DNA of 53,795 bases, counting the filler, from Sphacelaria rigidula (Eukaryota), in the NCBI GenBank assembly GCA_964200075.2. It is 4 parts of 4 records of this genome, joined end to end, with 100 filler letters (N's around TTAATTAATTAA, not from the genome) between each part and the next. Parts side by side here need not be neighbours in the genome. Positions count along the whole stretch, not along the records: positions 40,425 to 53,795 come from CAXNAA020002931.1; 3 more parts are not named here. One strand, 5' to 3'. Shown here piece by piece: positions 13,377-53,795 of this stretch. The translations under genes were made by a program, and so were the position numbers. Positions within the stretch are counted from its first letter, which is position 1, and each line of letters begins with the position of its first letter. The notes under the pieces are model-generated. The model saw only the letters and a list, made by a program, of their open reading frames with translations, was not told where the DNA came from and did not search any database.

Positions 13377-13476
13377 NNNNNNNNNNNNNNNNNNNNNNNN
13401 NNNNNNNNNNNNNNNNNNNNTTAATTAATTAANNNNNNNNNNNNNNNNNNNNNNNNNNNNNNNNNNNNNNNNNNNN
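13377..13476. other. Artificial contig spacer
   Basis: N44-TTAATTAATTAA-N44. Confidence 0.98.
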
Positions 13477-26851: not shown

Positions 26852-26951
26852 NNNNNNNNNNNNNNNNNNNNNNNNNNNNNNNNNNNNNNNNNNNNTTAAT
26901 TAATTAANNNNNNNNNNNNNNNNNNNNNNNNNNNNNNNNNNNNNNNNNNNN
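26852..26951. other. Artificial contig spacer
   Basis: N44-TTAATTAATTAA-N44. Confidence 0.98.
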
Positions 26952-40324: not shown

Positions 40325-40424
40325 NNNNNNNNNNNNNNNNNNNNNNNNNNNNNNNNNNNNNNNNNNNNTTAATTAATTAANNNNNNNNNNNNNNNNNNNN
40401 NNNNNNNNNNNNNNNNNNNNNNNN
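40325..40424. other. Artificial contig spacer
   Basis: N44-TTAATTAATTAA-N44. Confidence 0.98.
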
Positions 40425-40621
40425 GCATCCCGATATAGTACAGTAGATATCCACACGGAGCCAAAAAAATAGCCTGTCACGTTACCTACCACAGCTAGGC
40501 CTGATGAATGAATCCGATTCTTCATACGACAAAGGTGTAGTCATCCGTGCGGCGTAATACGTCACCATTCGTTCTCGTTCTACTTCGTTTTTGGGTCATT
40601 TTGTGTACATGGGAAACGCAC

Positions 40622-40726
40622 CACCCTACGGGCCACGAAGGCGCCCTTGAAAAGCTCCTCTGCCTTTTTCGATAACTGTTTTGCTGCCTCCGCGACCCCC
40701 GGTATCGCCCGCGCTCTCGGCGATTC
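40622..40726 (-). CDS. SNF2 gene exon, bromodomain helix C
   Basis: ESPRARAIPGVAEAAKQLSKKAEELFKGAFVARR; donor position uncertain by 3 nt. Confidence 0.75.
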
Positions 40727-43700
40727 CTTGAAAGGAAAAGAGTGCCATATGGCGAGGAGGATACAGGACAGAAGCAGAGACAGAGACATAGAACGGACAA
40801 ATAGCGAGGGAGATAAAGCAAGGCGGAGATAGACAGAGGAATAGATGCATAAAAAGAGAAACAGACAAGATTATGTAGACAAGCACGGGCAGATAGACAG
40901 AGGAAGACAGCCAGTCAAACAGAAGACGAACGAACAAATAGAGACAGGACAGCAACAACGAAGAGGGCAAGGGAGAGAGATGAACGGGTACATGACAGGC
41001 GGAAATGGATATGGATATGGATAAAAATATACAGAGTCAAGGATACATGAGCGAAGGTGAAGATACGGAGAGATAAAGGCAACCAGAGAGACACAAATAG
41101 ATTATGAAGAGGCAGCAGAGAGGGACAATGGGCAGCGGAAGCCCCTGATTATTTTGGGGTGGACAAATCACCGCGCATTTCTCGGACAAGAGAGGGGTGC
41201 GGTGATGGTAGGGTACGTACACTGCAGTAAAGGAAAACAACGCTCTCATGCATTAACCCTTGCGGATAAATGCACAATCCTACACACACGGAGTCGTTGC
41301 CATGAAATACAACCACAGCGAGTAATGAACACATTCAAGGTCGTGTTCTGTAGGGTACGGGTATGTTCGGTAGGGTATGATACCTCTTACAGAACATACA
41401 GAACTATCGGGTACCGGTATGGCAATGTTACAGAACTCACAGAACCTGTCGGGTACGCTATGAAGGCTATGGAGAAACCCTTGTCCGCAACCCCCGCGAC
41501 CGCGTATGTATTTGTAAAAGGGTGTACCCGTACCCCGAGTAAGCATGAACACATCGAGAAGATCGTGCAAAACTGTCGGGTACCGGTGTGGAAGGCTCAC
41601 AGACCTCAAAGAATTGTCGGGTACGTGGAAACACCCGGGGAAATACCCCGGGTGTACAAAAAGCCAAACCCTGCGGAACAAAACCTTGGACGAATTTAAC
41701 CGCACCTGTCCAAAGTCGCCAGTCGTCGCCCCATGATACAGGATCGCATTGGAAAATACTCTCCGGACGTCCGAGGCGAATTGCTCGAACGTCTCATACT
41801 GAGGCTGCGCGTCACGACGCGTGCGCGATGACGTCCGCCTGTTTTTCCCCCGAAAACACGAAATTCCAACCATTTGCGAGGGGCGGTGTATATTTCAGTT
41901 CAAGTATCCCCCCTTCCCCTTACCCATTTCATGGCCCTGTAGAAATAATCTTCACGTCGTCCAAAAACCACCGGTAAAAGCAGTATAAAGGCCCCTGTAG
42001 GCAACTCATTAGCAGCAGGAGTCTCTAAGCGCACACGAACAACTGGGTTTACGTGAACTTATGTTCTCCTATCCGTCCCCCCTTGTAGAGTGCGGATCGG
42101 TCTCCACAAAGATCCTGAAAGTTAGCCGCCCCACCGGTGTTTTTTTCAAAACACCACATTAATTCGACCATTCTGACTCGCGTTCAGGTCGTATCAAATC
42201 TTGGAACCAGCGTAGAGCCCTACTCCGACTCTCGAAACATATCGACAAGACAAAAACCAGCTTCATTTTCATAAGTCTAACAAGCCTCATTACCTGGGTT
42301 AAAAGTATCTCTCCCCCGCCCCCATGTTCTGTCCTGAAATGGATGCGTGGTCAATGGTCAAACGACTGAGGGAAGCAACAAATGAGTACGCCCCCCGCCT
42401 GCGCCTCGCACGTCTTGGACTAACAGGGGGGGGAAAGTGGTTTGGTACCGAAATTAAGAGAGATGGAGACAACGTTCGTTAGGTTTTTCACGTTCTTCAA
42501 GTAATTTCGATCCCCTAAGCAAACTTCACGAAGGGGCTTTCCCCCCAATGTCTGGCAGCTTGCTGACGCTGATCCGGCGCCAAGCAGAGATGGCTCTCAA
42601 TCCTGAAGAACCCTGGTGTGTTCCACACTACTACAGCACATCCATGAACCTAGACTCTATAGCTAGAGAACGAGCACAGCCCTGGCGGTAGCTAGTTTTC
42701 ACTGGGAACATGGTGTGCTCAAACAACAAAACGAAAAAATAAATAGCAGAATATCGAATGAAAGAAAGAAGAAGAAAATAAGCAGAAAATGAATGAAAAA
42801 ATAAATTGTGGACATAGGTGTGGAAGCCATTCCTCACGCAAACAACAACAAAAAACACGCGACAACACAGGAAAAAAAGAGAATAGAAAAAAAAGATCGC
42901 AAAATTATCATCACAGTCTCCTTCACCACTACCGCATTAAGACAGACCCCAGTGTGTTAAGCATTTCAGGGTAGCCTGATAGTAAAAGCTCCTGATCGTA
43001 TCTGGGGTCACCACGACATACATAGTGTTGTTTAGCATGGGCTCAACCCGAGGCACCATCTCATGAACAGCTGTCGAAGCCGAAGAGGCATTTTCAGAAT
43101 ACTTTTCTCCGAAGCCCCCACCTGGCGATTGCCTGCAGATCTATGGGATCGCCCACCACGTCCAAGTAGTCCACCATGCCAAGTTCCTGACAAATCGTGT
43201 GCACGTGGCAACAAGCCCACGGGGCCAACGTTTAGGGCGTACTAGGCAGGATCGGCCGACGAGCAGCTGTCACCGGCAGATCTCAAGGGTTGGGGATAGT
43301 GCTGCTAGCTCGCCGTGCCAAAGCGCACTGGCGTATACCGATTTGATTGATGATTGATTGATGATCGATTGATGTATATTAACCGGTCGCCCCGGTGGCT
43401 CAGCTGGTGGCCTCGAAAACCTTCTGACGGTTAGGTCGTGGCTTCAAATCTCGGAGCGATCTGGGTTTTTTTCTCACACCATGCCCAACAGTGGAGGGCG
43501 ACTATGGCGTGGGTACACAAAATTGGACTGAACGGTCGACGAGGGAAAGGGATTGCTGAACCCGTCTCGCGATAAAAAATAAAAGGCAAGCACCGCACAA
43601 GGAAGGTGGGGCACTAAAAACAAAGAAAAAAGAAAAAGCTCCTGTGTTGACCTTTCTCCTGTGTGACCCCGGCTGATGCGCCCGCATACACCGAAAGGTG

Positions 43701-46700
43701 TAGACTGGCGTCCAGAAAAGATGGGACAACACACACATAACACATAGTGGGTGATCTCCGACACATCCAGCCGTGGTCACAAGGTGTAGCCGTGCAGTAC
43801 TAACGGGAATCAAAACGATAACAATCTCTGGGGAAAACAGTAAAAAGGTTGAAGATCGGAGACGAATCCAACGGAGCGATCTGAGACGAATACTCAACCA
43901 TAGACAACACATAACCAAACACACGGGAAAAAAGGAGAGGAAAGGGAAGGGAAGGGAAGGGAAGGAGGGGAACAACAAAATTCAGTCCTGATAGAAATAA
44001 CAATGATACTGATGATAAACAAAAATGGCGGACCCCTACAGCATGGCTCAAGGTGAAAAAGGCTGTGCGCAGCAAAGAAAAAAAAACAAGGGAAAAACAA
44101 GGGGGAAGCACACACACACACACCAAAAGAAGTCGGAACAAAACACGAAAAATGCAGCGCGTTTGTCTTCGAAAGGAGTTGCAGCATTGACTTCAAAGCA
44201 TAGTCAAGGGGGAAGGAGGGAACGGGAGGAGGGAAGGTAAATCTTCGCCGGTAGCAGCACGATCCTCGATTGCGTGTGGTGCGTCCTTCGCTCGGAACGA
44301 TACCGCAACGCCTACCTACGAAATCAAAAGCGAGATGCGTAGATACAGCGGGGCTCCGATGATCAAAACGTCAGATCTGACGTATCGACTCTAGTTCGAG
44401 GTTGATTTTGCGCTGTCGAACTCCGAGCCTTATGCCGGATGTTACGGCAAACAAGTTTTTGGCCCACGGATTGTTCACCTTTGGGACGTTTGAGCCACTT
44501 TTTTACCCTTAAACATGGAAAATCGCCAACACACGTCTCGGGCACTTTGCATCACCACACAGAGAGGAGTCTAGTCTGCTTTTCAGATTCGCTTGGCTCC
44601 GAGGTTTCGAGATTGGCCGCTGGACAATAATTCGTGTGCAATACTCTGTGCTTGCCGATCCCCGCCAGTTTGCCCAATAATCTGTGAAGATGGCCGTCGA
44701 TTTTGCTGCACACGGATTATTGTTCAGCGGCCGCTCTTGAAACCTTGGAGCCAAGCGAATCTGAAAAGTGGACTAGGCTCCTTCCTCTCTGTGGGGTGAT
44801 GCAAAGTGTCCAAGACGTGTGTTGGCGGCTTTCCCTATTTGGGGGTCAAAGAGTAGCTCAAACGTCCCAAAAGTGAACAATCCGTGGGCCAAAAATCTGT
44901 GTGCCATAACATCCGGCCTTATTTCTACTTTTTTTTCTTCTTTTTCCGTCATACATCCAACGCTTCCCCTTCCCGGGATGAGTCGAGTCCGCAGTCTCAA
45001 GGGAAGAAAATTAACCCATCTCTCCCCCGTTACACCCTACATTTTGGTATAGTATAGCGGATTGGATCATGACCAAGCAATCCTGCACGCACCGCGTCGA
45101 CTCTCGTCAATTCCCCCTCTGCTGATCACGTCCTTGTGGTTTTAACGACGGAAGCCAGATCCTTCTCGGAGCGAAAAACTAAACTAAAATGCGTCTGCCG
45201 GGACTTGAAATCCGCGATCTCCCGCCCCAAATGGTTCCAGTTACAACTTTAATTCAGACCACTGGGGTGCGGTGGCATAAACGAAATGTGGTATAGTGTC
45301 TTCCATGGCTTGAAACCGTGAGAAAGATGTAGGTGGAATGAACGCTGGTCTCTTTCATTACTTTCGTACTACATATTATTCTGTTAATTAAAGGGGGGAA
45401 AGAGCGGAGGGGCAAAAGTCCAACAGAGAAGGAAAAATCAATGAAATACCGTGAACGCACTCGGAGGGTTTCCTCGTCCAATTCACGGCTAAAAACGCCC
45501 TCCGGATCCTCCAGCTGCAAAGCTCTCAACACCTTAACCATGGCTCCCTGTCGTTCCATGTCCCCCCAGTGCCTCCATACGTCGGTCGGTGAAGTACTAC
45601 CTCGCGAGCTGCTCGCTGCGGGCATCGGAAGCGCCGCTAGGAGAAGCGACGGATGAGTCATGGTGGATAACGCACGGCAAGGCGGATATGGGAGGTTTTC
45701 AATTGAAAACACCAAGGGTTGGGATAGAGGTGGTAAAACTTGCAGCGCCTTTGGGCCTGGCATTATCTCCCCCGCCTACTGCCCAACAAAGCAGAGTGTT
45801 ATGTGTAAAGACTCTACAATCATTGGTATAAAACACGGCGTGACTCGGCAACGTGCGGGCAGCGAAGAAGATTGTTCGTTCGACTCAATTTTGCTTCTTC
45901 CCGAGCGTCCTCGGGTAATGCATTTGTCATGATCCATCGAAAAGGAGTTGAGACAACTGTACCCTTCCCAGAGTTGGTCGCCATGTCGCCTTCATTGTTC
46001 TCCGTCAAGATCACTCCCGAGCCTTGGTACTTGTACGATTCAGCCGCGGTGGAGGTTCATCAGTGCCGTACGTACAGCGATCGGATTCCCGTACACGTAT
46101 AGTAAATGCACAACAAGGATGAAAAAGGAACGGCGCATTGTTTAGTAGGGCGAGACCACCCCCGTCCAGTCACCACACCCAAAACACATCAATCATCACA
46201 AAACGTGTACAAGGAGGCAACATCCACACGCCTGCACTCACCGGGTAGCAACCCTCTAGTCCGCAGTAGCAAGGCCAACACCGTGATCGTCTTGCCCAAT
46301 CCCGGCTCGTCGCACAGCATGCCTCCCCTTACCGGCCGGCATGGCGGCGGGGCTTTATCCCACACCATCCCATCAACAACGTTGATCCACAGCCTCCGTG
46401 CAACTGGTCTATTCTGCCAGCTGCGAGCTTGGCCTTCGGGCGTAACGCCTAGCGGGGGGCTTGCTCCGGGGTGACCGGCGTCGAGGGGCGACGCGCCGTG
46501 CTCCGATCGTACCGGGTGCAACGGAAATAACTCCGGGTGGAGGCGAGGCGCGCGGCCCCTTTCGCGGTCACGCATCCATTGGAGTCCCTGTTGAAAGTGT
46601 ACGGAACAGGACGGTTTTGTGGTCTATAAGAGCGATTTCATGTTGCGCTGTTATTAAGGGAACTCATTGAAGCTCGGAAGGGGGCCATCACCGACATGAA

Positions 46701-49544
46701 TGGGAGGCAACTTGATGTAGGTATGCACGCGTGAATGCCCACACGTCTGTGCACCCGGGAGTGAAATGGGGAGCGACAGACGCTTGCACGACGAAAACAG
46801 CTCCCGCGCAAAGGACAGTTATAGCGCGGCGGAGCTGCGGTAGCAACGGGGGCAAACCTCAGGCATCAAACACACGCCATAGATTTTGATTCAATAGTGT
46901 ATTGGGTAGGGTATCACCGATACCCGGGTATTTTGAAGAGTCGTACTGTCAGTACTCAAAATTTCGAGTGGAGTATTCACATCGTACCCACTCGGGGGAG
47001 CTACTTCTCACCGGTTTTCGTGGCACCTCTCTTCTTATTTTGATTTTCGGTAATGTTTCTTGCAAGGAATAGCAGGAAACGGCATTGGAAAGGTGAGCCT
47101 ACGTCTGTGACCACGGGTTCGCGAGGTCGGACTAATGCGCGGAAATAATAATAACAATAATAATGAAAATAATAAACCCAGCTCTGCCCTGAATTCGAGT
47201 ATTGAGATCATACACGAGTGATACTCCATACCCAGGCATTCGTGAAAGTAAATACTGCACATTTGGGTAGAGCAACGAGACTCTACCCAACTCTACCCAT
47301 CATTTGGATAGAGTAATTGAGGTCGTACCCAATCTACCCAAAACTTGTAGAAGAGTAAATACTCCAGTAGTATACTCGGGTATTCAAGAGTACACGCCGC
47401 ATACCCTACTCAACACACCCTTGTATTGTTTGACTACTTGTAGGACATGAAATGGATGCCCGAGGGATCCAGCTGTGATCATCATCTACAAAATATACGT
47501 GCTCCAGGTGAACAAGACGGCAATGCTTGCGAGAGGAAACTCGAGATAGCTCTGTACAATGCGGGCAGCATCGTATGTGGAGCAATGAGTTGTTAGTATC
47601 ATGCTTGTTAACAGGGCTCACCTCCCACACATAGGGGTAACTAAAAGTGAATACAAATATCTTCGCGCAAAGCGCGATTATGGCCGAGCGTTTGAAAATC
47701 GCCACTGGGCAAAAATCGAGGACCCACCCGAAATCAGGGGAATACACACCGTTGAAACGTTCATGGCATGCCCATTATTTTTATGCTGTAGTTCTCGCTG
47801 TGCTGTTAGGCATCCGAACACTCTACGGCGACCACGGTGCGATGTGCACTGGACAGTGCCTGAGCAGTTGTACTGCTGCATGCCGTGTTTCGGGCTGCAC
47901 AGAATTGGGGTGAGATCAAGGTGCTGCCGAAACAAAGAAAGGTTGAAACAATCGTCACGTGACGGCTGTACAGCTGTCTGTTGCGTCTTCTCTGGTACTC
48001 CAGTTATAGTCGGGGGCTGTGATCGGGGAAGACACGCCAGGCAGGTGCGTGCAGGTTGGGACGAACAAACTGAGCCAGGTTGGGACAAACAAACTGAGCC
48101 AGCACGGAGCTGCTGTTGTATCCTCGTTTATTGCCAGTAGCAGCTGTCTGTGTGGCAGCGGCGCAATGTGTAGACCAATCAAAGCTGCTGTTTGATATAC
48201 CTCCCTCTCATATCTCTCATTTCATTGAAGAAAGGTCACCGCATTTTGGTATATTTCAAGACTCTGGTCGAGATACCTTGCAACTCATAGTTCTTGCCCC
48301 TATCTGTGGGCCCAGTACCGTTAATAGGAAGACATGCCTTATCAAAGTATGGCCACGGACCACACATGCAATAAAAATATTAGCTCACCTCATGCTGGTG
48401 AGGGAAGAGATCAAGGGCAAGCCCCGGCACAAGGACGGAGCACGTGTGGTACTGAGCCCTGCAGGTCACCGTCAGCGCTTCCAAGGAATTCGCGGGTAGA
48501 TACTGCGCCACTGGAAGGCATGAGGGACGGCGCGGGATTCATTTGTGTATGGGCGTACATGTCGCGTGTTGATTTCCCCATAAACGGTATTTGTTGAATT
48601 TCTTTGGTCCGCAGCCCCGAGCGGAGAAATTTCACGGACCGTAAAATAAAGCAGCAAGTGTGCTGCTGTTCAATTTTAATTTTCAAAGAGCGCGATGGTG
48701 AGAACGCCTGAAGATTTGCGCCCCCATTGCGCCCTGCGTACAATCTATACTGCAACCCGCATCGGACACATGTTGGCCCAACTATGTAAGAGAGCGCCGA
48801 TGTGTACGCGCGAAGGGTGCTTGCCTTTGATCATCACAGCAGCTGGCACCGCATTCAGTCCGCACGCACCAGGCCCTGGCCCCACGACCGACGTCCCTCC
48901 TCGATCACCCCCAACTTCCACCACGATCCGCGGCGCTTGCGGCTTCAGCGAGGCATACACCGCATCGAGAGCATGGCCCGCCGGCTTCTTCTTCTTGCCA
49001 AGTACTGTGCTCTTTGGAGGGGCCGACTGCTGCTGCTGAGGACGCGCTTTGTGAACGATGGTTGAGATCATGTTGGTGTTGTATACAGATGTCCGATCTG
49101 GCACCTGCAGTAAAGGCGTCAGTGTCCGATCCATTGCTGTAGTCCCCCGAGAATATGCGGATAAACACGGAAGCAGGGACTGCCAGGCAGGCCACTGCTC
49201 AGTCGTGGTGGGGCTGATGCTAGCGCCCGGAATCATCGGTACGTCTAGCTCGGCCAGGAGTTCTGCTTCCACGTCTGCCTGCTTACCGGCAGCTGTACCT
49301 GCGGTACCCAGATGTTGATCACGGGAGGGCGACCCTGCTTCCAGTGGTGGACGTCGAACACCGAGATAATGAACAACGGCGGCGCCTTGATCAGCAGCAA
49401 TGGTCGTGATGACATGCAGAGGTTCCGCAGCAGGACACGTGACAGGCCGTCCCACAATCTCTAAAGTGTTGCGTGACGATGGTATCAAGCGTGCCTCTGT
49501 CCAAGCTTGAGGGACATACAGGGAGGTGTCATCGCCGACAGCAC
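40622..49544 (-). CDS. F-box + SNF2-family helicase + bromodomain protein (At3g54460-like); 5' portion only, 3' end beyond the contig
   Basis: Phase-consistent exons ~49544-48825, 48510-48389, 46587-46242, 45636-45461, 43186-43122, 41838-41706 and 40726-~40622. F-box GLNAVPAAVMIKVAQYLPANSLEALTVTCR; then LVPGLALDLFPHQHEGLQWMRDRER; SNF2 motif I RGGMLCDEPGLGKTITVLALLLRT; bromodomain KVLRALQLEDPEGVFSRELDEETLRELGMVDYLDVVGDPIDLQAIARR..YETFEQFASDVRRVFSNAILYH..VAEAAKQLSKKAEELF. Confidence 0.88.
41336..41688. mobile_element. Short hAT-type MITE (same family as 4414 and 15251), intronic
   Basis: TIRs CAAGGTCGTGTTCTGTAGGGTACG and ..CCCTGCGGAACAAAACCTTG; flanks match at 5 of 8 positions. Confidence 0.85.
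41706..41838 (-). CDS. SNF2 gene exon, bromodomain helix B
   Basis: YETFEQFASDVRRVFSNAILYHG. Confidence 0.88.
43122..43186 (-). CDS. SNF2 gene exon, bromodomain ZA loop and helix A
   Basis: ELGMVDYLDVVGDPIDLQAIAR matches the DYxxxIxxPMDLxTI pattern. Confidence 0.88.
43383..43745 (+). mobile_element. tRNA-derived SINE (intronic)
   Basis: A-box TGGCTCAGCTGG (43396), B-box-like GGCTTCAAATCT (43440), a body and a CA-rich tail. Confidence 0.7.
44433..44918. mobile_element. PIF/Harbinger-type foldback MITE (intronic)
   Basis: ~210-bp TIRs (T/G)GCCGGATGTTA..TAACATCCGGCC; 3-bp TSD TTA at 44430-44432 and 44919-44921. Confidence 0.88.
45461..45636 (-). CDS. SNF2 gene exon, bromodomain helix Z
   Basis: MVKVLRALQLEDPEGVFSRELDEETLR; acceptor CTAG|, donor |GTGCGT. 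Confidence 0.85.
46242..46587 (-). CDS. SNF2 gene exon, helicase motif I (Walker A)
   Basis: GLQWMRDRER..RGGMLCDEPGLGKTITVLALLLRTRGLLP; donor |GTGAGT. Confidence 0.92.
46897..47418. mobile_element. Degenerate MITE (intronic)
   Basis: 18-bp TIRs GTGTATTGGGTAGGGTAT and ATACCCTACTCAACACAC (16/18 match); repeated TACCC/GAGTA subterminal motifs. Confidence 0.6.
48389..48510 (-). CDS. SNF2 gene exon, F-box end and LFPHQ motif
   Basis: VAQYLPANSLEALTVTCRAQYHTCSVLVPGLALDLFPHQHE; acceptor CCAG|, donor |GTGAGC. Confidence 0.88.
48825..49544 (-). CDS. SNF2 gene N-terminal exon ending in the start of the F-box
   Basis: Long open frame ending GLNAVPAAVMIK; GC donor AAAG|GCAAGC; 5' boundary uncertain. 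Confidence 0.75.
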
Positions 49545-49963
49545 CTGACAGCAAGCACCTGAACTGAAAATTAACCCTAACTATCAAACCTCGTGATCCA
49601 TGAACCATTATTTTTTTCTTACTTTGAACACGCCCACCCCCCCCGTACGCTACTCTCCCAAACGCACGACCAAGGGCGAGCGAGCGGGACGAGTCCCGGA
49701 AATAAACGTTTCCAGTTTAAGGGACTCACAGTAACCCAGTGTATCTATATAACCCGCGGTCATTTCAATAGAAAATGGTATTATTTCGTTCTGTATTTTA
49801 ATTTCCAAAAGACATTTATAACAATGTGTACTTTGCTGCACATCAGTGCGGTATCCAGACAGTTCACATCCATCACCAGAACAAAACGACCCTATCGATA
49901 CTTCGCATCTTCGCATTCATTGCAGCACGATACAAGACCGGACCACAGTGCACGACATCTACC

Positions 49964-50308
49964 ATGGGTGAACCACTGCTAGGGAGCCTCATCTGCGGAA
50001 CCATGGCGCTGTCGATGGTGCTGTGGAATTGGATGCTGATGCGATCTCAGCAGCGCATTGGTCGGGAGTGTGCCCATGCCGCAGCAGAGCAGGCCCGCGC
50101 CAAATTGAACGCCCACGATAATGGTGATGGGCAAGAGCAACACTGCCGCGCCTATCACGAGTCAAAGGACGGACAAGCGTGGGAGCAGCAGGAGCAGCCG
50201 TCCTTGTCTCCTTCGGAAGTGAAGGGAAACAGAGACCGGGTTGACACGTTGCCTCCAACTCCTCCTGGATCCTATGCCCTTGAAGAGGGCTTCTTCCCAG
50301 AGAGGTGA
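49964..50308 (+). CDS. Hypothetical protein (first exon or short ORF) with a hydrophobic N-terminal segment, divergent from the SNF2 gene
   Basis: ACCATGG start; MGEPLLGSLICGTMALSMVLWNWMLMR.. followed by a charged region; ends at TGA 50306-50308 or at donor GAG|GTGACC. Confidence 0.45.
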   Translation: MGEPLLGSLICGTMALSMVLWNWMLMRSQQRIGRECAHAAAEQARAKLNAHDNGDGQEQHCRAYHESKDGQAWEQQEQPSLSPSEVKGNRDRVDTLPPTPPGSYALEEGFFPER

Positions 50309-53300
50309 CCGTAAACGTGTACTGTACTGTGCTAGTATACCCGTTTATTCATCAGCAGCAGCATTGAAGCACAGCAAAGAAGCCGTGTGCATGAGCCATA
50401 GAGTGTGCATGGTAGGGCAATCTAGTAGATGGTGTGCTTCGTTGCACACGGCACAGCCGCAACAGTGAAACTCTTCGTAGTAACACATCCGGTGTGAAGC
50501 TCCACTGAAGTTGACAGAATTATCATTCAACGGTCAGTGACGAAATATTGCCACTGCCAATAGTCCCTGCTTGCCCGCTCAAGAAGGTTGACGTCGCTGG
50601 TTGAACAAACTGAGCGGCAACGTTGTGTACCGCTGGCATGGGCCGTCACGGTGGTTGCTGATTGCCTGTCTACCTTGCACTGCTGGTCACTGTCCGTTCA
50701 CGATAGTGGCAGTGATACTGCGAGTGGGCATGGGTCAGTTTGTAGCCACGGCATAGGAGTACTTGTATGAGGCAGTCACGAAACATGGGCTGCTACATAC
50801 AGGTGTTCGAAAAACTCTGCATGCGCACAATCGTTGTATGCTGTCTCACACACACGAAGCACCTACTATATCTCGTGAGAAAACGCTTCCGATTTCGTTT
50901 TTGGAATTGTTCAACTCTACCCCAAGCCTTACTACGATATTGTACCGCGATGCGCAAATCCGTGACGACCCTTGATGCCATCTTGCCTGTGCCATAATTT
51001 GACAAGACCCTATTTGACAGTCAGTGCACTTAGCCATGTACCCTACAGTTCTGTCTACCGCATACGAAGGGGTACAGCAGTATTAGTCAACCGACACCTG
51101 CTGTAACTGCGTGCCTGCTGGGCCATGATTCGATCTTGGTACTGTCATCAGGTTGAACAGTTCAGCTGGAGACGAAAGGGGAGAGCACCGCGAATGTCAT
51201 TGTAGCCCTACCGTGAGATACGAGGAGAGTCTCATCACCCTGGTGGATAATATTTTTGTTTGTTGTTTCAAAAGTCAACGTTGTGTGGCGACCCAATTGT
51301 AGCAACCTCACGGCAGCCACCACCCCATGCTGTCTCAATCACCACCCTGGCCGCTAGCAACCTGGCCGTGTGCGCAACAGTAAAAACGCACAACAGTTTC
51401 CGAAGGGAGATGAAGATGTACCCCCGCCTCCGCTCAGAGCGTGGCCTGCATTTTGTTTCTTACATGAAAGGCTGAATGCAACCGTGTTCTGCAACAGCAC
51501 TGCAGGCAACAGTGTGCAGTGGAATTGACTGAAGATGGGGCCAGACAGGGCGATGGGGCCAGACAGGGCACGAAGACTACGACTCACAGCAAGAATAATT
51601 GGGTGTAGGTATTTCTTCATGGTTTGGCGGTCGTTACCCAGATTGTAGACTACGCATACATCGCGAAGTAGGTGGGGATCCTGTCGGGGAACAAAGAATG
51701 AAGTGACGATATTGACCAATCAGCATCACCCCAATGATCCCTACATTTGGTTGGTGCTTCCGTCCAGGAATAAGATCTTCCCACGGCAATTTCTGAAAAC
51801 GCGCATGGTTGGTTTTATAAGCTCTTTGGTTGATATAGGAACAGCTCCCTCCCACCTCTAAAACGATCCCACTGCTCGCCCGGAAACCCTCCATGTTCCA
51901 AAGCAAAGCTCACGATGTATAGGTCGACTCTTTGGCCGCCAGAGCACATCATGTGAGTCACGTTCTAGCTTGAAGAGTGAAAGTGATTCTAGTTAAACAG
52001 ATGGCCTACCCTCGCCATCAAGGCGTTGAGAGGGTGGGTCATACGTTGAATCGGCATCATTCTTCACTTGAGGGATGTCTGCGAGTCCCAAATCGTCCAC
52101 CCTTGTGTAACCCTTTTTATGCTCGTCCTCCATCATCACCCCGGGGGTTCGTAATTATTGTTTTTGGTGGAGAGACAACCCCTAGGTACAACTATTGCTG
52201 CGACGCGTATGCCGCGTGTCACAGCCGAGTACAGGACAACAGTCAGCACAGCTATTCGTGCATGCGCCGGGACTGGCGACCTTAAATATCGTCCTGAGGA
52301 GCCCAGCCATGGTCGTGAGACGGAAACTCTCTCGCGAAAGAAAGAAATACTCCGGAGTATGGAACAAAAAATATGAAATCAAGAAACGGACTGAACCATT
52401 TAATGAAACACGTAAAACGAACAAGAACAGAAAAACAGAAGAACAAAGAGAGGGGTGAAGAGCATATAGCATAGTGCATATACTTGTGTGTATAGGATAT
52501 GGGCAAGACAGCTAGAGATCAGTTCCCGTGTTAACCCAGCTTCCCTCACTCATCCTCAGTCGGGTACAAAGCGGGATACTCTCTCCACCATGTCTATCCT
52601 GAATTCCTCGTCAGATTCTTGCAGTCAGTTCGTTCCTTTCTGCGGAATCCAACCACTCGCAGTAAAAGCGGATGTTGGGCAGCGCGAGGACTCAGACTTG
52701 CCCTCTCACACTGTCAAGGGCACGTACAGGAGGTTATGGTCCACATGCACAGCTGTTTGCTCCTCACTGAACAGCTGAAGGTCGTGTCGTATTGGTCTCT
52801 GTTCTCCAGATAGCGCATGCTAGCGTGTTTTGAATTTCGGCCAGAGGTTTCCGCAGCCCCCCTCCCCTCCCCCAACCCCCCTGCTATAGCAACCACTACC
52901 ACTTGATCGGGACACAATCACCACGATCGGGAGTTCCGCTCATACGGGCTCATATATCTGTTGGATCCAAAGTACAATTCTACCTGACGGCAGAGGGTTC
53001 CATGTGTGCCACTGTTGCGTTATCCCACCAACCCAACCCAACCCAACCTAAAATCCAGGAGATGATATTCACGTGCCAGAGTAGTGGAACGAGCCAGGAT
53101 AATATTCACGTGCCAACGCAATGCACGCCGTGAACCTCCGGGTACAGAGGTGGCCACCCCTGAAATATTCACAGGGCGAAAACAGGTTTTGCCGTGGGCA
53201 ACGGGGGTCAGGCGCTCTGAAGAATAAATGGTCCCGTATGGGTAGAGCTATTACATACTTCGAAGTATATAATCGTGATTCTGCGAGAACAGGAAAAACC

Positions 53301-53795
53301 CTGCGTCGATATGCACACCACCAACCTCTCATGAAGAGCCGAGCTTCTCTCCATAGACCCCCCTTTCTATGGTTCACTGGCTGCGTGCTGCTGGGGTCGG
53401 CGTCGGTTGGCGATGACGCTATAAAACACGCCACTCACTACGTAAGCTAGGCAACCAAGTTACCGTGTTTTTTTGCGCTCTTGCGTTTTTGTTTTTGCGG
53501 TAACCATGTTGGTAGTCCAGCTAGATCATGTTGTGCGGCGTGAGAGAACCTCAACCCCGCGCAATGGCGATGATCGTACTACTTGGTGGGTCAATGGTGA
53601 GGCACCCATGAGGCAGTGTAAAAGCCGTGGCTGTCTCAGGAAATGGCGATGCCAAACGATAAAGCAACTCATTGGAGGCTGTCATCCAAATGCAAGATAA
53701 TCAGTAGGCCTCAGGCTCAACAATCTTGGCAGGATGCAGCTCACTCTTCATGCGACTCGCCGACCCGCCACGGCGCTTCGCGCTTGGTGATTGAG

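Follow-up and report, generated by a model that had tools for sequence, protein, structure and literature searches.

An internal bromodomain in an SHPRH/CHR39-type SNF2 ATPase gene of the brown alga Sphacelaria rigidula

The Arabidopsis protein At3g54460 (AtCHR39) is placed in one subfamily with At2g40770 and human SHPRH, according to a table in PMC3781322 and a passage of PMC10051476. The latter source credits SHPRH with the polyubiquitination of PCNA; beyond this activity in animals and a growth phenotype linked to DNA methylation in Brassica (PMC10051476), enzymes of the SHPRH/CHR39 type are poorly understood. Two soybean members of the SHPRH subfamily are reported with F-box domains (excerpt of PMC10138738), and a transcript annotated as SHPRH (K15710) is described as constitutively male-specific in Saccharina gametophytes (excerpt of PMC6742357). 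We analyzed a stretch of 53,795 bases from the brown alga Sphacelaria rigidula (assembly GCA_964200075.2), called the window throughout, whose last part carries the beginning of a gene of this type. With a probability of about 0.8, the locus is the 5' part of an expressed brown-alga gene, its seven exons supplying the first 1.73 kb (577 codons) of the coding sequence; on this reading the product is a Rad5/16-like SNF2 ATPase of the SHPRH/CHR39 type, and the bromodomain form to which it belongs is an old and widespread branch of the family and not a local invention. The encoded protein begins with ~245 residues without a known family, followed by an F-box-like helical motif of ~45 residues, an LFPHQ motif, the Walker A motif and a four-helix bromodomain of ~150 residues.

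The CHR39 type of the green lineage, with an F-box/zf-CW/SNF2 architecture, has much in common with the protein described here and its orthologues: LFPHQ and GG.LCDEPGLGKT, an F-box or F-box-like motif just upstream of them, RING cysteines, Helicase_C and a reader placed between motifs I and Ia. The reader is a CW finger in the CHR39 type and a bromodomain here, and CW rows occupy the opposite half of our helicase-core tree; P0015 and plant entries with a precomputed PF07496 match stood for the CW form in this comparison, in place of the At3g54460 sequence itself. The link to the At3g54460 family, drawn in a preliminary description of this DNA, is borne out by the subfamily placement of AtCHR39 in the two sources named first and by the signature held in common with the CW-type P0015. 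SHPRH, whose name is spelled out in PMC10051476, is likewise a Rad5/16-like SNF2 protein with a RING between its lobes and chromatin-reader domains in its N-terminal half. Linker-histone and PHD families were absent from the Pfam families listed for the 60 family members that we scanned. According to the preliminary description, SHPRH carries H15/PHD at the equivalent place; it is not known to have an F-box.

The nearest solved structure is that of Rad5 (K. lactis, PDB 6L8N and 6L8O), both in sequence (expect value, E, 8.4e-15) and in fold (E 4e-16), with only ~13% identity over the structural alignment; Rad5 is an SNF2 translocase too, contains an embedded RING and a HIRAN domain, and is not known to have a bromodomain or an F-box. 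For the bromodomain itself, the best matches in sequence and fold are those of the CBP/p300 type, which have in common with it the four-helix bundle, the ZA-loop Tyr and the helix-B Asn. The two differ at the anchoring Asn (of LYN in CBP), which is His here, in the BC loop, which is longer here, and in the place of the domain, which is embedded in an ATPase lobe here. Remodellers of the Snf2/Brahma type likewise have their SNF2 ATPase and a bromodomain on the same polypeptide (PMC4030286, as given in its Table 2). Their bromodomain, however, is C-terminal and follows Helicase_C, and these proteins belong to the Snf2 subfamily and have no RING or F-box.

The window is composed of four separate pieces of 13,371-13,376 bases each, divided by three spacers that are artificial, so that neighbourhood across them is biologically meaningless (Table 1). 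The last piece, 40425-53795, holds the gene on the minus strand, and the gene leaves the contig at 40425. A public record, P0001 ('unnamed protein product, partial [Sphacelaria rigidula]'), shows 97% identity to the reading frame that contains motif I and was taken as the public model of the locus. Comparison of P0001 and the Ectocarpus-type orthologues P0003 (1043 aa) and P0008 (1409 aa) with the whole window by tblastn gave seven collinear minus-strand blocks from 49446 to 40616; the other three contigs of the window gave no match to any of the three proteins. The spliced frame covers 1731 nt in seven exons, with 577 codons and zero stops. The six introns, five of them GT-AG and one GC-AG, have phases 1, 0, 1, 0, 2 and 0.

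All six joints (40725>41705, 41837>43121, 43185>45460, 45636>46242, 46586>48388 and 48510>48825) were recovered in contigs of three sequencing runs (X1-X3), each of which holds contigs carrying all six, and a single 5624-nt contig of X2 spans every exon listed for it. None of the six was found in a DNA run (X5), where the introns were covered instead. Depth in X1-X3 was ~40-135 in exon bins as against 0-3 in unique intron bins. Exon limits were set from the transcript-like contigs after one-base shifts that fit equally well, and these contigs were used for joints and not for expression level. The seven exons in consistent phase of the preliminary description thus stand, and its 3' limit at 40622 coincides exactly with the donor of exon 7. 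GTGCGT follows exon 7 directly; past 40621, 30 loose letters of the X2 contig stay in frame and read ..DRGEALAERL by hand translation, like P0008, and the contig runs ~3.9 kb beyond exon 7. The gene continues on another contig.

The contigs also correct the public model at two junctions. At intron 1, which ends GCAAGC...TTCCAG and whose joint ends CT..GC on the plus strand, P0001 splices from a GT donor further downstream to another acceptor, in place of the GC donor of the contigs, with the result that six wrong residues replace three within the F-box-like motif; as spliced in the contigs, the junction reads like that of Ectocarpus. At the end of exon 6 (after 41705), P0001 retains 12 intronic codons, its donor lying at 41670 as against 41705 in the contigs. 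The error at the GC-AG intron belongs to a class worth checking genome-wide in brown algae. A partial public model with two wrong junctions, on a short contig, is what could be expected of a chimeric model or mis-assembly in which an SNF2 fragment has been fused with a bromodomain gene next to it. Such an artefact is scarcely credible here, since single transcript-like contigs run from motif I through the bromodomain and beyond it in three runs, and independent assemblies of many taxa show this order again, with motif Ia following on one polypeptide.

Table 1. Positions of the gene parts and of the spacers in the window
Feature	Position	Strand	Evidence or content
Exon 1, codons 1-261 (putative start)	48825..49608	-	tblastn to P0003/P0008 49446-48817; contigs 48825-49552/3 only
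Exon 1, content		-	N-terminal region without known family and first half of the F-box-like motif (LNAVPAAV, 48858-48835)
Intron 1, 314 nt, GC-AG, phase 1	48511..48824	-	joint 48510>48825 in X1-X3, absent from X5
Exon 2: second half of the F-box-like motif and LFPHQ (48409-48395)	48389..48510	-	tblastn, joints
Exon 3: SNF2 N-terminal region, motif I / Walker A GGMLCDEPGLGKT (46326-46288)	46242..46587	-	Pfam, joints
Exon 4: linker, bromodomain helix Z, start of ZA loop	45461..45636	-	tblastn, joints, CBP alignment, AF2
Exon 5: ZA loop, conserved Tyr (MVDYLD), DPIDL, into helix A	43122..43186	-	tblastn, joints, CBP alignment
Exon 6: helix B, start of BC loop, FSNAILYH (41756-41733)	41706..41838	-	Pfam (partial), joints, CBP alignment
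Exon 7: bromodomain helix C; donor GT at 40621-40620	40622..40726	-	tblastn, joints
Artificial spacers (44 N, TTAATTAATTAA, 44 N)	13377-13476, 26852-26951, 40325-40424	none	identical sequence

The bromodomain was recovered by profile, by alignment and by fold. In Pfam, P0001 matched Bromodomain (PF00439) at 33.0 bits against a cut-off of 21.7, and exon 6 alone gave a partial match of 19.1 bits. The family was above its cut-off in six of the eight proteins scanned, these being P0001 and five orthologues (24.8-42.5 bits); the CW-type P0015 and P0013 from Phaeothamnion were the two without a Bromodomain match. A phmmer search of the PDB returned 185 matches at E<=1, CBP among them (E 3.4e-7) in an alignment that pairs the ZA-loop Tyr and the helix-B Asn. 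The AlphaFold 2 (AF2) model of P0001 places helices Z, A, B and C at residues 234-250, 284-292, 306-324 and 354-374, as expected of the left-handed bromodomain bundle and its ZA and BC loops; its predicted local distance difference test score (pLDDT) is mostly ~79-92 within the domain, dropping below 50 in the BC loop (328-346). The top Foldseek matches of this model are all bromodomains (CBP, p300, BRD1, BRD9), with target-normalised template modelling (TM) scores of 0.79-0.85 and E-values of only ~2e-3, the latter because the query includes long low-confidence parts. The complete four-helix bromodomain split over four small exons, as first described, is therefore confirmed in exons 4 to 7.

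The domain lies within the ATPase lobe. In the AF2 model of P0003 (1043 residues, mean pLDDT 73.8) it is preceded by the Walker A helix (412-422) and followed by the strand of motif Ia (649-653), and so occupies the segment that holds zf-CW in the GC-rich homologue P0015 and in plant proteins. No match to zf-CW (PF07496) was obtained with Pfam in the window exons or the brown-alga orthologues, P0015 giving 40.4 bits, and the proposal that the bromodomain occupies the insertion of the CW finger agrees with this placement. The SNF2 identity of the surrounding lobe is supported by exon 3, which alone matched SNF2-rel_dom (PF00176) at 37.4 bits against a cut-off of 24.9, and by LFPHQ and GG.LCDEPGLGKT, which form invariant columns across the brown-alga proteins, P0014 and the CW-type P0015, as expected from the LFPHQ and motif I reported at the outset. 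The orthologues matched SNF2 at 114-167 bits, with Helicase_C matched in P0008 and P0014 as well, and past the bromodomain they contain the remainder of lobe 1, then a C3HC4 RING and lobe 2. Six Cys columns of the RING are conserved at >=90% across 60 family members, and the Pfam matches to RING-type families in the orthologues are mostly under the cut-off.

We surveyed the family for the reader at this place. Among 15 relatives found with the motif-I exon, 10 had precomputed SNF2 and Bromodomain annotation, an entry from Ectocarpus siliculosus (NCBI, UniRef/UniProt) included, and one (P0015) had zf-CW. Comparison of P0003 with 1.84 billion cluster representatives (50% identity) gave 5426 matches at E<=0.001, of which the best 150 were used, and an iterated insert profile made from the brown-alga bromodomain was applied to 163 proteins. 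A bromodomain directly after motif I was found in 35 of the 163, corresponding to 25 of the best 150 representatives, and Pfam supports it in 17 of those 25 (E<=0.001). A CW finger was found by motif pattern in 13 of the best 150. In 35 other members with long inserts, Pfam gave Bromodomain in none and zf-CW in two; four of these (group L1) hold a divergent bromodomain (hhalign 98.6%). Groups L2-L4 were tried as bromodomains and rejected (hhalign 5%, 0.1% and 0.1%). Beyond the brown algae, the bromodomain form occurs in other ochrophytes (Chrysoparadoxa australica), a diatom (Nitzschia sp.), a bigyran (Incisomonas marina), three choanoflagellates (Salpingoeca kvevrii, Choanoeca flexa and Hartaetosiga balthica) and Rhodelphis marinus. 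Named members without a reader are Pythium insidiosum, Mallomonas annulata and Galdieria, and a named CW member is the plant Corymbia.

A tree of the helicase core downstream of the insert (90 rows, 382 columns, quick method, LG+G4, unrooted) left out 73 of the 163 proteins that were too short or had no recognisable motif Ia. The brown algae form a clade of six rows (Shimodaira-Hasegawa-like approximate likelihood ratio test, SH-aLRT, 98) together with P0014, Chrysoparadoxa, P0017 and P0018, and all six have His at the anchoring position; the sister of this clade (83) is an 11-row clade (99) in which the Asn-type proteins, Nitzschia among them, are found. Seventeen of the 18 bromodomain rows fall in one half of the tree and all eight CW rows in the other. 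All 18 bromodomain rows as one exclusive clade were rejected (approximately unbiased, AU, test, p 1.3e-5), and the bromodomain state requires at least six changes over the tree, in which gain and loss of the bromodomain are indistinguishable because it is unrooted. The preliminary description had credited the insertion to this lineage, which is too narrow in view of the bromodomain at this site in several supergroups. The strongest-matching nearest relatives are indeed all brown algae and CW forms exist in plants, as would suit a brown-alga innovation that replaced an ancestral CW finger. We regard that scenario as very improbable, given the bromodomain forms of Chrysoparadoxa, Nitzschia, Incisomonas, the choanoflagellates and Rhodelphis and the separation of bromodomain and CW rows in the core tree; an old and widespread bromodomain branch remains our reading.

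The insert after motif I in the partial P0013 (Phaeothamnion confervicola) is expanded by Ala-rich low-complexity sequence and contains bromodomain fragments only; it has no Pfam match, and our local bromodomain profile gave 48 bits over its first half. This insert may be a decaying reader or the product of a poor gene model.

Several points weigh against the reading of the locus given at the start. The kind of the runs X1-X3, all three from a single study, is a guess, as is the RNA nature of X1-X4 in general. The start codon is placed at the in-frame ATG at 49608, from which the frame is open; this ATG lies outside the transcript-contig coverage, all contigs of X1-X3 ending at 49552/49553, 55 nt short of it, and the peptide from it resembles the N-terminus of the orthologues only loosely, and for these two reasons the start is presumptive. 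The window holds the first 577 codons, and motifs Ia-VI, the RING and lobe 2 are predicted from the orthologues and the length of the X2 contig. The F-box scores of the Ectocarpus-type segment lie under every Pfam cut-off: 18.5 bits for F-box_4 (cut-off 32), 15.0 for F-box-like (24.3) and 12.9 for F-box (20.5), with PF00646, PF12937 and PF15966 tested. A profile of six F-box-like sequences matched the PDB at E 0.19-1.4, with none better than 0.19 and with the F-box proteins at 0.3-1.4. The acetyl-lysine-anchoring Asn (N of LYN in CBP) is His here (..ILYHG..), so the canonical rule gives no support for acetyl-lysine binding.

The last of these points bears on what the bromodomain may read. Among 35 family bromodomains, the anchoring position is His in 17, Asn in 13 and another residue in four, with no residue in one; it is His in 9/9 of the brown-alga sequences covering it. 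Directly after the His, the BC loop differs in length between sequences and, in Ectocarpus, is rich in Gly. Alanine mutants of the anchoring Asn abolish peptide binding in BRD4 (excerpt of PMC3326523), and with the His and the variable loop this would fit a pseudo-reader, in which the fold is kept, acetyl-lysine reading is lost and the domain has a structural or regulatory role within lobe 1 or binds another ligand. We hold this to be unlikely, as other pocket features are kept, namely the ZA-loop Tyr, the Phe at the PF position, P-x-D and the helix-B Asn (7/9 brown-alga sequences, with K in P0008 and Q in P0012), and as the His is fixed across the clade supported at 98, which speaks for selection on the anchoring position. 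On the reading of a functional reader, the replacement of the Asn in the brown-alga clade means that the ligand may not be plain acetyl-lysine: the His could act as the donor at the anchoring position, and its fixation could equally mean a changed ligand. The acetyl-lysine-type reader of the preliminary description is accordingly unproven. The conserved His offers a concrete, testable pocket variant.

The F-box announced in the same description is only partly upheld, a motif being in place and its scores in brown algae, as scanned in the Ectocarpus segment, being sub-threshold. It is best called F-box-like; it is positionally homologous to the true F-boxes of the family, and its binding to Skp1 is putative. 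F-boxes usually have a Trp after CK, which is absent from the aligned brown-alga segments. Together with the Pfam scores and the PDB matches given above, this would suit a motif that does not bind Skp1 but packs against the ATPase as a helical extension of the N-terminus, the protein acting through its RING only. We give this alternative serious weight without preferring it. The homologous segment of the CW-type P0015 reaches the F-box-like cut-off (24.4 bits versus 24.3), and at E<=0.001 Pfam F-box and F-box-like are found in 4/25 and 3/25 members of one set and in 6/35 and 8/35 of another. Members from Galdieria are named F-box protein (PF00646). Seven of the nine PDB sequences matched by the six-sequence profile at E<=10 are F-box proteins aligned at their F-box, and in the AF2 model of P0003 four helices (254-257, 260-267, 272-279 and 283-289; pLDDT 80-91) make up a compact cluster within residues 254-289. 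An F-box-like motif with putative Skp1 binding is thus the designation we retain.

By analogy with its relatives, the protein would be an ATP-driven double-strand DNA translocase and, as inferred from the family, also a RING E3 ligase, for which SHPRH and its polyubiquitination of PCNA would be the model. The inserted reader might bring the enzyme to a modified lysine on chromatin or gate it on such a lysine, and the F-box-like motif may dock Skp1. We tentatively raise a broader and rather doubtful proposal, in which the bromodomain form would be the older state of the whole F-box/SNF2/RING family, predating the split of stramenopiles, choanoflagellates and Rhodelphis, the motif I-Ia segment would be a fixed socket in which readers (bromodomain, CW finger or none) were exchanged or lost, and the change of Asn to His in brown algae would mark a switch away from plain acetyl-lysine. 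If true, one translocase and E3 machine would have been retargeted to different chromatin marks.

The finding amounts to a domain exchange in a known family, which is well supported and opens no long-standing question. A reader inside the ATPase lobe, present across several eukaryotic supergroups, provides a natural experiment on the steering of such enzymes. The architecture had been put forward as one not known as a described family. We found no published description of an SNF2 protein with an internal bromodomain and an F-box in the full-text literature, supplements, where brown-alga chromatin gene catalogues may sit, being outside the scope of that search; the architecture is already in public records as an automatic SNF2 and Bromodomain listing for the orthologues, and to that extent its novelty is reduced.

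At the 5' end of the gene, the preliminary description had begun exon 1 at 49544, which is a possible acceptor position, but the contigs reach 49552/49553 and the frame is open to 49608. AG acceptor-like sites occur at 49560-49559 and 49546-49545, near the 5' end of this exon. The N-terminal 261 residues encoded by exon 1 gave no Pfam family and no usable ESM Atlas match, and the AF2 model of the Ectocarpus-type orthologue shows beta strands in this region at a pLDDT of ~36-75 only. For the 3' part, a query with the post-bromodomain region of P0012, made among proteins of 344-1096 residues, listed 44 proteins, none of them from Sphacelaria. The orthologue of Ectocarpus sp. CCAP 1310/34 is split into P0010 (446 aa, SNF2 and Bromodomain) and P0184 (714 aa, remaining SNF2), both on the same 35,945-bp contig, and the split is probably an annotation break.

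The introns contain stretches of unusual depth. At 42296-42606, 43229-43850, 44473-45094 and 46961-47271, in introns 2, 4 and 5, the summed contig depth in X5 was ~9e4 to 5.6e5, as compared with ~30 for unique sequence in the same run, and the depth at these repeat-like stretches was high in the RNA-like runs too. They look like very abundant repeat families. Inside one high-copy intron stretch, nested inverted repeats at 44434-44917, with arms of 135 nt (87%) and 85 nt (85% complementarity), resemble in form a foldback element or one of the miniature inverted-repeat transposable element (MITE) type.

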